DNA of 64,000 bases from positions 6,558 through 70,557 of the forward strand of contig JAIEMM010000010.1 of the NCBI GenBank assembly GCA_019752125.1. Reading direction: 5' to 3'. This document shows, piece after piece, positions 50,485 to 54,884 of the stretch. Position numbers and translations under genes: made by a program. The notes beneath the pieces were generated by a model. The model saw nothing but the letters and a program-made list of their open reading frames with translations, was not told where the DNA came from and ran no database searches. This DNA is from Patescibacteria group bacterium. GTDB taxonomy: Bacteria > Patescibacteriota > Minisyncoccia > Phycocordibacterales > SBAW01. The first letter of the stretch is position 1; the number at the start of each line of letters is the position of its first letter.

Positions 50485-51000
50485 TTACATCTTCCGACTG
50501 TCGTATGCCCAATGTAGGACAGCTTGCCGCTGCTTGGCATGACACTTAAAGTCTCCGACACGGCAGCTGTTCTTAATCTGTGCAGTGTGGCGGCGCATCG
50601 CTACCCATCGTTTGATCTGTCGCTCGTCGTCAGGGCCTCGACGGCCCATGTAGTACCTGCAGTACCACTGAAACCAGCCGCGCGGGTCATCTTTATATAT
50701 CCACCCCTTCTTACGCCACACGGAAAGTGGTTGGCTTGCATTCACACCAAAGAAGTTAAGATTCGCGTCGGGCGTATACACGCCCTTCTTTTGAAATTTT
50801 GCTTTAGTAAACCAATCCTTAGGAAATTCTTTTACACAGTCGCGCATATACACGCCACCAAAAACACCGAGTGCGAGCATTTGCTTGGGCGTAAGCTCCG
50901 GCTTGAACCGAGGGTCAAAATTTTTTCCTGCAGGTTCGGTTAGCGTGTATACATACACCTTCTGCACCTTGTCATGTACCCGAACAGTTTTGGTTCTCAT
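50485..51000 (-). CDS. hypothetical protein (conserved-looking, unknown function)
   Basis: 171 aa, W/Y/R-rich: FGGVYMRDCVKEFPKDWF, PRGWFQWYCRYYMGRRGPDDERQIKRW. Confidence 0.4.
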   Translation of the reverse strand: MRTKTVRVHDKVQKVYVYTLTEPAGKNFDPRFKPELTPKQMLALGVFGGVYMRDCVKEFPKDWFTKAKFQKKGVYTPDANLNFFGVNASQPLSVWRKKGWIYKDDPRGWFQWYCRYYMGRRGPDDERQIKRWVAMRRHTAQIKNSCRVGDFKCHAKQRQAVLHWAYDSRKM

Positions 51001-51003
51001 TTT

Positions 51004-51225
51004 TTATTCCTTAATCTCAATAATTTTCGAAGGTGTCTTATGTCCGCGGACAATGCGCACGCGGGACTTCGGCACGCCAAAGTGCGCAGCAACAAGCATC
51101 ACAACTCGTGCATTCGCAGCGCCTTGCTCGGGCTTTTCTTTGACGGAGATCTTGAGGCGCTTGGCTGAAATTTCTTCAACCCCATCCTTCCTCGCCCCCG
51201 CCGTTACTCGTACACTTAGTTGCAT
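51004..51225 (-). CDS. DUF167 (YggU-like) protein
   Basis: LSVRVTAGARKDGVEEI...ISVKEKPEQGAANARVVMLVAAHFGVPKSRVRIVRGHKTPSKII fits the YggU family. Confidence 0.65.
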   Translation of the reverse strand: MQLSVRVTAGARKDGVEEISAKRLKISVKEKPEQGAANARVVMLVAAHFGVPKSRVRIVRGHKTPSKIIEIKE

Positions 51226-51302
51226 AGAAACTCCTTTTTTAGAAATGGTAAGATTGATGAGAGGCGTTCGTCTTATTATACAAGTTAACCAGTAATTAAT
51301 TT

Positions 51303-51989
51303 ATGGATAAAAAATCAACTCTAGCTCAGGGGCTCGTAGGCGCACTTGTACTAGCTACTACACTTCTACCAGCAGCGGCTCTTGCCCGCGACGGAGAAGA
51401 CTCGAGGACGACTCTGCCGGTCAATGTTTCTACGCATATAGAATCTGAAGGCAGTGACGACAGTATATCTGCCGACTCCGCAACAACAGCCACAGTGCGA
51501 GGCGATAATGAGGATAAATCTAATGATTCTTCTGGACGCAAGTTAGAGGAGAACGATAATGAAATAGAGAGTGAGATAGAGATCGACCAAGAGTCTGCTC
51601 ATAATGCATCAACAACTATCGACGCACCGGAACACGTTTCCAATCGTGGAGAACTGCGCAGTTTCCTAAACCACGTCATCAAAGCCGATGACCGAATTTC
51701 TGACGTACGCGTATCTTCGAGCACGATTGAAACCCACTACCAAATGCCTGCAAAATTCTTGTGGACAATTCCGATGAACCTTACCGCAAAGGTATCGGTT
51801 GATAGCAACGGCTCAGTAAATATTACGTATCCGTGGTATGCGTTTCTCTTTGCGAAGCACGACAGTGATCTTGCTGCACAATTAGAACAATCAGCAGCTT
51901 CTACGGGCACCACTACCCTATCTGCAAGCGCCCAAGCACACTTGCTTAACCTCCTGTTCTCAAACCTCAAAACTTCAACGGGGCAGTAA
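51303..51989 (+). CDS. secreted acidic hypothetical protein
   Basis: Signal peptide ...LLPAAALA, then a D/E/S-rich low-complexity region. Confidence 0.45.
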   Translation: MDKKSTLAQGLVGALVLATTLLPAAALARDGEDSRTTLPVNVSTHIESEGSDDSISADSATTATVRGDNEDKSNDSSGRKLEENDNEIESEIEIDQESAHNASTTIDAPEHVSNRGELRSFLNHVIKADDRISDVRVSSSTIETHYQMPAKFLWTIPMNLTAKVSVDSNGSVNITYPWYAFLFAKHDSDLAAQLEQSAASTGTTTLSASAQAHLLNLLFSNLKTSTGQ

Positions 51990-52106
51990 ACTACTGGTGC
52001 GTTTGTAAAAACCCAAGGCCCTCAAATATCCCTTGAGCCCCTTCATATTGGGGCTTATTGGCATGATGTCGCGGAGGAGGGCAACGTATTGCATATTACA
52101 AAACAG

Positions 52107-52132
52107 TTTTTCTTATTTTGAGGTGTCTGACC
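52107..52132. repeat. direct repeat copy A (tttttcttattttgaggtgtctgacc)
   Basis: 24/26 identical to 54851-54875. On the minus strand the similarity extends to about 40 nt (GTCAGACnCCnCAAAATAAGAAAAAnTnTTnTGTAAT). Confidence 0.6.
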
Positions 52133-52550
52133 CCAACTCTCCAAGGTATTTCTTCATTAGCTCAACCTTTTCTCTAACTTCTTCAAGTAACTTGTCAGAG
52201 ATGGGAGAATTTGTGGCATGTTCCAAAATAGGCCTTACTGACTGAATCTTTCTTCCAAATTGATCCATCCACTCATACCTTGGCAACATCCAAAGATGGA
52301 AACCGTGCGCAGAATCCTCATTCTGAAAAATATATACATCTTTACAACCAAGAACTTCTTCCATTCCTTTCCTTATTTTTTTTACTAATGGAGTAAATTC
52401 CGAAGCTTCCTCGTCTGTAAAATCTCCGATTGAACGAATGTTTCTAATCGTTGAAACAATAAAAAATGCGGGAATTGGAACTTCCCAATCTTGAGCAACT
52501 TTAAAATTTTTGGTCTCAATGACCACCTCATTTGGGAAAAGCACTTTCAT
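52113..52550 (-). CDS. HIT-like hydrolase-fold protein (degenerate histidine triad)
   Basis: FKVAQDWEVPIPAFFIVSTIRNIRSIGDFTDEE and VYIFQNEDSAHGFHLWMLPRY match the HIT fold pattern, but the triad reads H-x2-H-x-W instead of HxHxH. Confidence 0.5.
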   Translation of the reverse strand: MKVLFPNEVVIETKNFKVAQDWEVPIPAFFIVSTIRNIRSIGDFTDEEASEFTPLVKKIRKGMEEVLGCKDVYIFQNEDSAHGFHLWMLPRYEWMDQFGRKIQSVRPILEHATNSPISDKLLEEVREKVELMKKYLGELGSDTSK

Positions 52551-52610
52551 GTCTTTATTATAGCAAAAAGAAAAAGCCTTAAAATATTTCTATATTAAGG
52601 CTTAAAACCA

Positions 52611-53576
52611 TCAGATTTTCCTTAACCTACCCCCTACCCACTTCTCGAAATGGTGCGGGAGATTGTAGTTATTACAGTTCCAGGCTGTCGCAATTGGTTG
52701 TTCTAGCAGAGAGCCAAAGGTGATTTTTGTCCCCAAAGATACATCTTCGGTCGCTATCTGACCATCCGGGAGGATCAAGCAGTAGAATCGATTGAAGTCC
52801 GATTCTCTGTATGAATACCGTATGGACATCGAAGGGTAGGCACGCCTAGCTTTTTGGACCCCTTCATTTATTACATCTTGTTCGGGTCGAAGCTGCTGGT
52901 ATATGGATCGTGCACGGCCAGCAGGAATAGTCCACGACAAAGCCCAGTCTCTGACCCCCAGATCGTTGAGAACTGCGGACATCTCCACTATCTGAGACTG
53001 ATTCCAAACATTAAGCGCCGTGAGAACCCTTAGGTTTATATTGTGCTTCACGTAAAGCTTAATAGCTTGGAGGGTTTCCTGCCAAGCATTACCTCGCCTC
53101 TGCCTACTTGGGCGAATCCTATTGTTCAACTCACTTGTAGCTGCGTCTAGACTTATTTCGACGCGAGTACAAACACGGAGGCTCTCCACGTTCTCCTGCT
53201 CAATGAATGAGCCGTTTGTCCCAAGAACAACGCTTACGCCACCATCAACTAACTTTTGAACAATGGAGAAGATGTCGTCTCTCAAGAGCGGCTCACCGCC
53301 AGAAATGACGACTCTCATCACACGAGCTTCAATAATTCTTTCCGCAATCGTAAGACACTCATTTGTAGAAAGTACTACACTAGGCAACTCTTCAACATTT
53401 CCGTAACAATGAATGCATTTCAAATTACAGCCCCCTACAATGACCCAACCTATTCCGATTGGGGATGATGGTAGCGGCTGATCTCCATTCATAACCTCAG
53501 CTGAGAATTCATCATTCTGGCGGTTGTAGATGACTCTTCCCCAAATCTCATCACGTATAAGATCTTTGTTTGTCAC
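52611..53576 (-). CDS. radical SAM enzyme (single CxxxCxxC cluster, no SPASM/twitch cysteines)
   Basis: GGCNLKCIHCYG, VISGGEPLLRDD, LGTNGSFI, EISLDAATSELNN. 321 aa, in a region of about 40-44% GC. Confidence 0.8.
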   Translation of the reverse strand: MTNKDLIRDEIWGRVIYNRQNDEFSAEVMNGDQPLPSSPIGIGWVIVGGCNLKCIHCYGNVEELPSVVLSTNECLTIAERIIEARVMRVVISGGEPLLRDDIFSIVQKLVDGGVSVVLGTNGSFIEQENVESLRVCTRVEISLDAATSELNNRIRPSRQRRGNAWQETLQAIKLYVKHNINLRVLTALNVWNQSQIVEMSAVLNDLGVRDWALSWTIPAGRARSIYQQLRPEQDVINEGVQKARRAYPSMSIRYSYRESDFNRFYCLILPDGQIATEDVSLGTKITFGSLLEQPIATAWNCNNYNLPHHFEKWVGGRLRKI

Positions 53577-53699
53577 GACCTTTCTCCTTTCGAGGAACCG
53601 TTGGTATTCTATGCACAGTCAATACCAAAAGTTATACATGGTCAATGTTGCCAAAAAAGTTAGTTTTTGCCGCCTGACCCCAAGCTCAATCCTATTTGA

Positions 53700-54035
53700 T
53701 TACATCGGACGGACTTCCATTATTTCAATGGTTGCTCCAGGAATACCTAGATGGGGATGATCCTTAAAAAGTTCTGCCACCGCTTCTGCAGATTCTCCCT
53801 GCGCATACGACGAGATCATCATGTCATTTTTTACATCTTCTACACCAGATGCGCTTACGCGCTTTGTTTTTCCAAGGGCGATCGTGTTGAGGACTAAATC
53901 CTTATGAACAAGCATCCACGCGTCCCAATCCGCTTTCATCTTTGCCTCAACCTCTTTACGTTCCTCTTCCGGCTTCTTCATCCACTCCTCCATACCTGCT
54001 ACTGGGGCCATGTATATAACGGTAAAATTTTTCAT
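53700..54035 (-). CDS. hypothetical small protein
   Basis: Internal Met (MKNFTVIYMAPVAG...) of ORF 53700..54344; 111 aa. Confidence 0.35.
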   Translation of the reverse strand: MKNFTVIYMAPVAGMEEWMKKPEEERKEVEAKMKADWDAWMLVHKDLVLNTIALGKTKRVSASGVEDVKNDMMISSYAQGESAEAVAELFKDHPHLGIPGATIEIMEVRPM

Positions 54036-54122
54036 ATAGTTCAGTTTAGCATTAACCAATACTTTTCTTATGAAGAATGAGTGTAGGAATAAACTCAGCT
54101 TACTGATATACATACAGAATAC

Positions 54123-54815
54123 ATGACAGATTTCCCTATGCGGATCAACAAATATTTGGCGTTTAAGAAGCACTCGACCAGGCGCGAGGCGGATACGCTT
54201 ATTGAGCGAAAACTTGTAACCATCAACGGAGTACACGCAAAGCTTGGTGACAAAGTGTTGGAGACCGATGTCGTAAAGGTAGATGCGCCAGAGCGAGTAT
54301 ATGAATACTACGCCTACAACAAACCGCGCGGGGTTATTACCCACTCACCCCAAGGTGATGAAGTATCTATTGCAGGCAGCATCCATATGCCTTGGATATT
54401 CCCCCTCGGCAGGCTCGATAAAGATTCAGACGGTCTTATACTCCTGACCAATGATGGCCGCGCGACTAATGCCCTGCTTAACCCAAAGCATGAACATGAA
54501 AAAGAATATGTCGTCACAACGCTAGACAAGCTGCCAAAAGATTTTAAACGAAATATGGAACGCGGCGTCGACATCGGCGACTACATTACAAAAAAATGTT
54601 CAGTGAAGATATTGAGTGATAATAGTTTCTCAATTGTTTTGACTGAGGGCAAAAAACATCAGATCCGCCGCATGTGCGGAGCGTTTGGCCAAAGTGTCGT
54701 TCAACTTACACGTGTACGAATTATGGACATACTTCTTGGGAAGCTAAAGGGAGGTATGTACCGAGCAATTCAAAAAACAGAACTCAGCACTTTTTTACAG
54801 GCAATTGGGTTATAA
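54123..54815 (+). CDS. rsuA: RsuA-family pseudouridine synthase (S4 domain + catalytic GRLD)
   Basis: S4-like N-terminus RINKYLAFKKHSTRREADTLIERKLVTINGV; catalytic LGRLDKDSDGLILLTNDG; HQIRRM. Confidence 0.8.
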   Translation: MTDFPMRINKYLAFKKHSTRREADTLIERKLVTINGVHAKLGDKVLETDVVKVDAPERVYEYYAYNKPRGVITHSPQGDEVSIAGSIHMPWIFPLGRLDKDSDGLILLTNDGRATNALLNPKHEHEKEYVVTTLDKLPKDFKRNMERGVDIGDYITKKCSVKILSDNSFSIVLTEGKKHQIRRMCGAFGQSVVQLTRVRIMDILLGKLKGGMYRAIQKTELSTFLQAIGL

Positions 54816-54850
54816 AAGGCTACTCCCTTTACTTCCGCATTACACAATAC

Positions 54851-54875
54851 TTTTTCTTATTTTGTGGGGTCTGAC
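54851..54875. repeat. direct repeat copy B (tttttcttattttgtggggtctgac)
   Basis: Partner of 52107-52132; sits just 3' of the stop of the minus-strand gene ending at 54885. Confidence 0.6.
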
Positions 54876-54884
54876 GCTGACTCT

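Follow-up and report, generated by a model that had tools for sequence, protein, structure and literature searches.

Amongst described radical S-adenosylmethionine (SAM) enzymes, the viperins (RSAD2) and their prokaryotic equivalents (pVips), represented by the structures 6Q2P, 7N7H and 9DFN, are proteins of ~300 amino acids (aa) with a single [4Fe-4S] cluster and a partial TIM (triosephosphate isomerase) barrel followed by a cysteine-free C-terminal extension, and dehydrate CTP, UTP or GTP to 3'-deoxy-3',4'-didehydro (ddh) chain terminators that block phage transcription. MoaA (GTP 3',8-cyclase) and BlsE (cytosylglucuronate decarboxylase, 7VOB) are further radical SAM enzymes acting on a nucleotide or nucleoside, and what is reported of tubercidin biosynthesis offers a precedent for the combined radical SAM and Nudix logic of nucleoside-antibiotic pathways (PMC6112128). 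The present analysis concerns two neighbouring genes, coding respectively for a radical SAM enzyme and a protein of the histidine triad (HIT) fold, on the minus strand of a 64,000-nucleotide stretch of DNA from a Patescibacteria group bacterium (assembly GCA_019752125.1, contig JAIEMM010000010.1, positions 6,558 to 70,557), hereafter the window. Both genes are real and the pair has not been described before; its radical SAM member belongs to a rare, well-delimited and unnamed family and is contained in no named one. The balance of the evidence tips modestly towards an accessory nucleotide-modifying cassette with a role in conflict, whether defence or antagonism.

The Radical SAM Enzyme and Its Family

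The window enzyme matched the Pfam model Radical_SAM (PF04055) at 76.8 bits, the cutoff being 29.5, which places it in the superfamily. Directly after its cluster motif, C50-x3-C54-x2-C57 (CNLKCIHCY), comes the invariant stretch Y58-G59-N60-x-E62, and positions 93-96 hold a GGEP motif, of which the SAM-binding G93-G94-E95 is invariant in 38/38 aligned family sequences. The protein contains seven cysteines, and because only the three of the cluster motif are invariant in that 38-member alignment the enzyme is considered to carry no auxiliary cluster, which bears out the single-cluster, 321-aa radical SAM enzyme of a preliminary description made from the sequence. The N-terminal part folds into a three-stranded sheet (residues 5-28) in which R8, E10, G13, Y17, D22 and F24 are invariant, while the C-terminal hairpin (LILPDG..K284..FGSLL..W) resembles a cysteine-free SPASM/twitch hairpin. 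With a (beta-alpha)6 core and this cysteine-free hairpin, the architecture converges on the viperin/MoaA layout; the AlphaFold2 (AF2) model had a predicted local distance difference test (pLDDT) score of 92.4.

The family comprises 93 homologues, ~80 of them aligned from end to end with identities of 33-84%, and a pattern scan of one genome per species across 185,579 species located 16 loci. When 1.8 billion cluster representatives were searched with a hidden Markov model (HMM), ~20 clusters (50% identity) scored above 270 bits, beneath which generic radical SAM proteins followed in unbroken succession (<=210 bits). The carriers are Patescibacteria (Paceibacterota, Kaiser-, Nomura- and Saccharibacteria), Myxococcota (Corallococcus, Myxococcus and Haliangiales) and Bdellovibrio. 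A scan against NCBIfam returned no curated model that claims the family, and the database entry identical to the window enzyme is named simply 'radical SAM protein [Patescibacteria group bacterium]'.

Many of the nearest relatives outside the family (set A2, including P0216, P0218, P0222, P0237, P0250 and P0258) are also radical SAM proteins of ~290-340 aa without C-terminal cysteines, and an N-terminal R-x-E-x-F-G..Y-D motif is common to the family, to at least P0216 and to the A2 consensus; these relatives may constitute a larger uncharacterised 'SPASM-less' clade. A phage origin was considered and rejected, the best IMG/VR match being 29% identical and the PHROG and BFVD matches being generic radical SAM proteins; the family itself was absent from the viral collections.

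Gene Neighbourhoods

In all 27 of the typed close-family loci for which flanking sequence was available, the radical SAM gene is adjoined by a gene for a nucleotide-phosphate enzyme: HIT-like in seven, a YfcD-like Nudix hydrolase (usually with an EamA transporter) in 11, and a MutT-like Nudix hydrolase (mostly with a guanylate-kinase-like protein) in nine. The HIT-like gene is located directly downstream in the window and in L004, L007, L028, L032 and L033, overlapping the radical SAM gene by 8 bp in L028 and separated from it by 3 bp in L004, and directly upstream, the gene order being swapped, in L114. A YfcD/IDI-like Nudix gene overlaps the radical SAM stop codon and is followed by that of the EamA transporter in Corallococcus, several Myxococcus strains, L005 and L030. 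This radical SAM-Nudix-EamA succession was observed in each of L001, L014-L018, L020, L005 and L030, of which L005 and L030 are unassigned metagenome contigs; in the Bdellovibrio locus L021 the contig ends directly after the Nudix gene. In L013 the Nudix gene is followed by genes for an HD phosphohydrolase and a DUF5680 protein.

The MutT-like Nudix gene is found directly upstream of the radical SAM gene in loci of the Nomurabacteria and Saccharibacteria type (L010-L012, L019 and L116-L118), frameshifted in L019, and has a divergent placement in L008 and L009. The Nudix gene is in turn preceded by the guanylate-kinase-like gene in L010-L012, L019, L117 and L118, the L116 contig starting at the Nudix gene, and the P-loop kinase so encoded keeps the TTR...R...EY-x-F...YGT signature. 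The exchange of one phosphohydrolase fold for another between lineages, with the addition of a kinase, is a classic signature of a pathway of which the intermediate is a nucleotide. The preliminary description had suggested an accessory nucleotide-directed radical SAM module with a nucleotide hydrolase as partner, and these conserved neighbourhoods support it in that respect. As to synteny, the two closest relatives have just the pair in common with the window: in L033 it adjoins uvrD, and in L032 it is, like the window pair, in the vicinity of ftsX-pyrG, the genes in between being different.

The HIT-Like Partner

The partner protein scored 18.9 bits on the Pfam HIT model (PF01230), below the gathering cutoff of 21.5. 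An AF2 model was built on 40 homologues (pLDDT 92.0). The top 40 matches returned for it by Foldseek from the PDB were without exception members of the HIT group (Ap4A phosphorylase, Fhit and Hint-like), the best being mycobacterial Ap4A phosphorylase and Fhit (E 6e-7, template modelling (TM) score 0.67), and the modelled protein has a confident HIT alpha+beta fold.

Its motif, S-A-H82-G-F-H85-L-W87-M-L-P-R-Y, aligned to S-V-F-H-Y-H-M-H-I-I-P-R-Y of Bacillus subtilis Hit, from which it follows that the canonical H-x-H-x-H is reduced to G83-x-H85-x-W87 with an additional conserved H82. The central histidine at the nucleophile position, H85, is consequently the sole triad histidine retained. Amongst the homologues H85 was present in 111/112, W87 in 112/112 and H82 in 103/112, and the motifs QDWE (20-23) and FQNED (75-79) are invariant in the family. 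The adjacent HIT-fold protein with an altered triad (H-x2-H-x-W) of the preliminary description was accordingly confirmed, the fold by AF2 and Foldseek and the motif by alignment as H82-G-F-H85-L-W87.

Proposed Role of the Cassette

A nucleotide link for the module appears probable. Given its superfamily membership, the radical SAM enzyme would be expected to cleave SAM reductively, the resultant 5'-deoxyadenosyl radical then abstracting hydrogen from a substrate which, on the strength of gene context and of the basic residues kept where viperin binds phosphate (K120, K220 and K319), would be a nucleotide or nucleotide-linked compound. The HIT-fold partner would cleave a phosphoanhydride or phosphoramidate of the product or substrate via a covalent nucleotidyl-His85 intermediate, its place being taken in other lineages by a Nudix or HD hydrolase, and this hydrolytic step might trim or activate the modified nucleotide, or else detoxify it for the producer. 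The guanylate-kinase-like partner of some lineages hints at a guanine nucleotide.

A conflict or antimetabolite function, as opposed to a housekeeping one, is suggested by the sporadic distribution of the family, by fusion or adjacency to M78 peptidases, by integrase and plasmid neighbours, and by the coupling to EamA in predators. An M78 (IrrE/ImmA-type) peptidase is fused N-terminally to the radical SAM domain in P0030, P0032, P0038 and P0205, the N-terminal stretch of P0205 reading as an Xre-like helix-turn-helix, and a separate M78 gene is directly upstream in a ~34%-identical subgroup (L027 and L120-L122) and in the partial locus L125. The best PADLOC match of these peptidases was capP (72-81 bits), followed by RmrA; we take the CapP model to represent a damage-activated protease that de-represses CBASS (cyclic-oligonucleotide-based anti-phage signalling system) and other defence operons, and RmrA presumably represents a Rosmer antitoxin-regulator. 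P0211 is a fusion with WD40 repeats, L004 is situated among genes for a type IV secretion system coupling protein, a relaxase and ParE, and L028 is beside an integrase and a Tle1-like lipase. In the distant M78-radical SAM subgroup, L027 (1398-4235) was also seen to have a class II ribonucleotide reductase gene directly upstream and two Uma2-family endonuclease genes downstream.

A number of observations weigh against a nucleotide-modifying conflict cassette. A hairpin and a -10 box intervene between the two genes in the window and three relatives, so that these need not be co-transcribed, and the genes differ in guanine-plus-cytosine (GC) content (37% for the HIT-like gene against 46.5% for its neighbour). 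The HIT-like family is far larger than that of the radical SAM enzyme, and its genes also occur singly in housekeeping contexts of DPANN and candidate phyla radiation (CPR) genomes (L023 and L025), so the protein may be a generic hydrolase recruited opportunistically. The radical SAM family has its highest sequence affinity to the SPASM/twitch clade, most members of which act on peptides or cofactors, and half of the nucleotide-contact positions of viperin are unconserved in it. Of the PADLOC defence models, the pVip models alone were matched by family members, and these are non-specific. The window pair has no adjacent M78 regulator, kinase or transporter, and no M78 match was obtained among the open reading frames (ORFs) scanned around it (50485-58219), so that the window locus itself falls outside the CapP/Rosmer-like group. 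Finally, what the enzyme acts on and what it makes are pure inference on our part.

It is possible, and is offered tentatively, that the window enzyme founds a new family of effectors, radical SAM enzymes that modify nucleotides and arose from the SPASM/twitch clade independently of viperin. Their product would be an undescribed, non-ddh nucleotide or nucleoside antimetabolite, with a HIT, Nudix or HD hydrolase dedicated to processing or neutralising it, and it would serve CPR epibionts and predators in defence against phage or in antagonism between bacteria, in some lineages under CapP-type damage-sensing control. Should the nucleotide-modifying reading of the cassette be correct, modified nucleotides would be reached by a second radical SAM route that evolved independently of viperin. 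Since the active site would differ from that of viperin, the product probably would as well, and new antiviral or antibacterial nucleotide analogues are of direct pharmacological interest. A conflict module of this kind in Patescibacteria would also be instructive, given how little is known of defence in this group. The family is of modest size with clear boundaries, its changes of partner constrain the chemistry, and the cultivable Myxococcus and Corallococcus carriers make the question directly testable.

A rival reading, which on present evidence seems rather unlikely, is that the cassette makes a secreted nucleoside antimetabolite, the radical SAM enzyme modifying a nucleotide, the HIT, Nudix or HD hydrolase stripping phosphates and EamA exporting the product, for predatory or epibiotic use against prey or competitors and not for intracellular anti-phage defence. 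The overlapping stop and start codons of the radical SAM-Nudix-EamA genes in Corallococcus, Myxococcus and two metagenomic lineages are consistent with it, as are the additional HD phosphohydrolase in L013, the precedent that tubercidin affords in what is reported of it, and a set of carriers confined to Myxococcota, Bdellovibrio and Patescibacteria. However, the HIT-type cassettes of Patescibacteria, that of the window included, are without a transporter, and the M78/CapP-type regulators and mobile-element contexts are better suited to inducible defence. Myxococcota and Bdellovibrio are predatory bacteria, and their carriage of the family together with EamA is a possible link to secreted antimetabolites, although the taxonomic pattern could be an effect of sampling. 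Oxetanocin OxsB/OxsA provide a second precedent for such logic. In the library of papers searched, none connects a radical SAM enzyme with HIT, Nudix, ImmA or viperin after the manner of the present cassette.

Relationship to the Viperins

That the window enzyme is a pVip or a functional equivalent, making ddh chain terminators from CTP, UTP or GTP against phage transcription, as the preliminary description had proposed, has a certain amount in its favour: a single cluster in a protein of ~300 aa without auxiliary cysteines, a nucleotide-kinase neighbour in some relatives, and alignment over the full length, C-terminal part included, which amongst the NCBIfam models viperin (NF038283) alone achieved, as did 7n7h amongst the PDB chains. 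Many pVips are likewise said, in the 2021 account of Bernheim et al., to have kinase neighbours. With Foldseek the enzyme model matched viperins at TM scores of 0.69-0.80 (0.75-0.80 when normalised to the target; E 3e-13) and covered viperin almost in its entirety, but SkfB and SuiB ranked slightly above them (SkfB E 2.8e-15).

The scores themselves proved unspecific. On NF038283 the enzyme obtained 70.1 bits, the curated cutoff being 180, and on the PADLOC pVip models 75-86 bits. As a specificity control the same models were applied to the 70 nearest proteins outside the family, many being SPASM proteins in which the C-terminal part carries 8-10 cysteines; NF038283 and both PADLOC pVip models matched 70/70 of these generic neighbours, with E values down to 7e-49 and 1e-50, and P0216, the one member of the set tabulated, reached 82.6 bits for viperin and 92-96 bits for the pVip models, which is above the window enzyme. 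A match of 70-86 bits consequently amounts to superfamily background.

Profile-profile comparisons, for which 10 animal viperins represented the viperin side here and in the residue map below, led in the same direction: hhalign aligned the family to viperins with a score of 110 (E 1e-14) and to its generic nearest neighbours with a score of 504 (E 2e-73), the latter alignment covering the N-terminal R-x-E-x-[WF]-G...Y-D...D-x-F motif that viperins do not have.

When mouse viperin was mapped onto the window enzyme by hhalign, K120, S124, K220, K319 and Y302 were found kept or similar (as R88, S92, R183, K284 and F264), R88, S92, R183 and K284 being invariant in the family, while N77, H79, N222, R245, K247 and C314 were lost (to G43, V45, L185, D210, A212 and V279). 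The positions mapped are all invariant across the animal viperins. Of the two residues reported to read the base in viperin, K319 and C314 (bioRxiv 10.1101/2023.09.13.557418), the first has its counterpart in K284. The full set of nucleoside triphosphate (NTP) contact residues sought (N77, H79, K120, S124, K220, N222, R245, K247, Y302 and C314/K319) was retained only in the part just given, and amongst the substitutions are N77, H79, N222, R245 and K247, which from the paper on structure 6Q2P we take to belong to the list of phosphate/CTP contacts.

Viperin identity was accordingly rejected on HMM cutoff, specificity control, profile-profile score and active-site residues, and a viperin or its functional equivalent is improbable. 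As far as sequence comparison can indicate, the enzyme is a cysteine-less SPASM/twitch offshoot with a viperin-like layout and a predicted pocket that differs, and is placed outside the viperin family.

Peptide Maturases and Housekeeping Enzymes

A further possibility is that the enzyme is a peptide or protein maturase of the type associated with ribosomally synthesised and post-translationally modified peptides (RiPPs), derived from the SPASM/twitch clade, to which the HIT and Nudix neighbours are incidental. Its nearest relatives in sequence and fold (SkfB, SuiB, PqqE, MftC and NirJ-like proteins) favour this, and the N-terminal beta-sheet could be the remnant of a peptide-recognition element. 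The best NCBIfam matches were NirJ2 (108 bits), AhbD (99 bits) and the mycofactocin maturase (94 bits), confined to the core and 3-5 fold under the respective cutoffs. Against it are the missing auxiliary cysteines and the result of the Pfam scan, in which the SPASM domain (PF13186) found no match on the enzyme, leaving it outside the SPASM/twitch maturases. An all-against-all BLAST of 791 small ORFs from 20 loci revealed no conserved small ORF that might code for a RiPP precursor, the cross-locus matches being shadows of the radical SAM gene or of neighbouring protein-coding genes, mostly the partner genes. The nucleotide-enzyme neighbours in 27/27 loci also count against it, and a maturase of this type is regarded as quite improbable.

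A housekeeping enzyme, whether MoaA-like in cofactor synthesis, QueE-type in 7-deazaguanine synthesis or an RlmN/Cfr-type RNA methylase linked to rsuA, is very improbable indeed: the proximity of rsuA, a CTP synthase gene nearby in the window and in L032, and weak matches to the MoaA models (61-71 bits on TIGR02666, TIGR02668 and NF001199) speak for it, but the MoaA cutoffs are 231-325 bits, all of the housekeeping models listed scored far below theirs, the 38-member alignment has no conserved cysteine outside CX3CX2C and hence not the C-terminal auxiliary-cluster triad of MoaA, and a family with 16 loci in 185,579 species genomes is scarcely a housekeeping one. The QueE PDB chain scored 21 bits, and MoaA, QueE and RlmN/Cfr were each rejected either on scores far under the cutoffs or because the models were not among the matches listed. 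The rRNA or tRNA modification tied to rsuA that had been entertained as an alternative fared no better, given that rsuA is on the opposite strand with another ORF between, is missing beside the pair in L032, L033 and L007 and not adjacent in relatives, and that the flanking genes vary. In no comparison did a housekeeping family emerge as the clear best match, with synteny conserved to bear it out.

Surrounding Sequence

The features located in and around the pair are collected in Table 1.

Table 1. Features of the gene pair and its surroundings; positions are those of the window unless another locus is named.
Feature	Position	Strand	Details
HIT-fold protein ORF	52113-52550	-	145 aa, ATG start; Fhit/Ap4A-phosphorylase branch, fold from model
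TATAAT box	52557-52562	-	6 nt 5' of the HIT-like ATG; identified by consensus match, putative function
Stem-loop between the two genes	52574-52603	-	energy -12.8 kcal/mol, z -2.1; followed by a T-run, 52565-52573
Radical SAM enzyme ORF	52611-53576	-	321 aa, GTG start; Pfam match
Leader of radical SAM gene	53577-53600	-	Shine-Dalgarno-like AAAGGAGA 7-8 nt 5' of the GTG; direct sequence reading
Intergenic hairpin, T-run and TATAAT-like box	52551-52610	-
Equivalent in L033	4854-4915		box TATACT
Equivalent in L007	6841-6905		box TACAAT
Equivalent in L032	8967-9030		box TATAAT
~46-nt direct repeat	52095-52140 and 54839-54884		83% identical; core TTATTTTG.GG.GTCTGAC
Weaker copies of the 24-nt repeat core	53660-53683 and 55636-55659
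214-aa ORF as listed	53700-54344	-	overlaps the rsuA-like gene on the opposite strand
Probable real product of the 214-aa ORF	53700-54032	-	C-terminal ~110 aa, start MKNFTV...
rsuA-like gene	54123-54815	+	~550 bp from the radical SAM gene
SIR2-like ORF	55663-56571	-	302 aa; one PADLOC match, 14 bits, E 0.003
tRNA-Gln(CTG) gene	56575-56646	-	4 nt from the end of the 302-aa ORF
PemK/MazF-like toxin ORF	56801-57187	-	Pfam 37 bits

The intergenic stem-loop looks like a terminator or attenuator placed after the radical SAM gene, and the box beyond it could give the HIT-like gene a promoter of its own and a near-leaderless transcript. Hairpin, T-run and box recur at the same place in three relatives, and 2 of the 10 predicted pairs of the hairpin have compensatory changes, a count drawn from four sequences only.

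The preliminary description had set the pair within a low-GC block bounded by direct repeats, and both elements of that picture stood in part. Low values were indeed recorded, but only for the HIT-like gene (37.2%) and, beyond rsuA, for the SIR2-like ORF (37.2%), a transmembrane ORF (40.2%) and the PemK-like ORF (41.1%); the radical SAM gene, at 46.5%, is close to the window mean of 47.5%. The 46-nt repeat likewise exists, but because every copy abuts the stop codon of some minus-strand ORF it resembles a recurrent gene-end element and not an island border; in the HIT-like gene it provides the last codons (..LGSDTSK*), which the homologues are without. RNA folding of the repeat gave no significant fold, and its copies were rejected as island borders or att sites in view of that result and of the weaker copies at other gene ends.

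The PemK-like ORF was confirmed, with no obvious antitoxin ORF called beside it. The SIR2-like label has the single PADLOC match to recommend it, but obtained no support from Pfam, NCBIfam, PHROG or PDB sequences. The stretch that comprises these two ORFs and the tRNA-Gln gene has a GC content of 37-41%, is missing between pyrG and the radical SAM pair in L032, and may be an inserted island. The 214-aa ORF had no Pfam or PHROG match.

Comparison with Known Systems

The HIT-like partner has its fold in common with Fhit and Ap4A phosphorylase (Rv2613c, 3ANO; Fhit, 1FIT), and has kept the histidine of the nucleophile position and the hydrophobic-P-R motif that follows; unlike these enzymes it has a G-x-H-x-W triad with an extra upstream histidine and a Pfam score below cutoff, and its family has the invariant acidic QDWE and FQNED motifs and a long C-terminal helix. 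An M78 peptidase fused to or directly upstream of the radical SAM enzyme gives some relatives a likeness to CapH/CapP-regulated operons and to RosmerTA-type systems with RmrA, but there is no CBASS or Rosmer effector, and the effector position is held by the radical SAM enzyme.

The SPASM/twitch enzymes (SkfB 6EFN, SuiB 5V1Q and PqqE 6C8V; NirJ, AhbD and MftC) provide the best matches to the window enzyme in sequence and fold, SkfB reaching 80 bits, and share with it a PxGRA motif and the C-terminal 'PDG...G(N/S)L...W' hairpin pattern. They differ in that it has no auxiliary Fe-S cysteines, SPASM Pfam match, RiPP recognition element (RRE) helices or precursor peptide, in that it fell 4-8 fold short of the cutoffs of all the named models, and in that its gene neighbourhood is nucleotide-centred. 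It resembles MoaA and BlsE in comparable profile scores (58-63 bits) and in the basic residue that the strand preceding GGEP carries; unlike them it is matched over the core only (residues ~45-218) and has no MoaC or blasticidin-pathway context, and the C-terminal cluster and GTP-binding arginines of MoaA are missing.

Unlike the viperins and pVips, the family has an additional conserved N-terminal three-stranded sheet, which viperin does not possess, and an obligatory partner that is a hydrolase (HIT, Nudix or HD) and not a kinase alone. It resembles them in its size, single cluster and overall layout, in basic residues at the positions of K120, K220 and K319, in the nucleotide-kinase neighbours of some relatives and in a sporadic accessory distribution. 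A module composed of such an enzyme and a phosphohydrolase would function in a manner partly comparable to viperin and to nucleoside-antibiotic pathways, for example that of tubercidin (PMC6112128).

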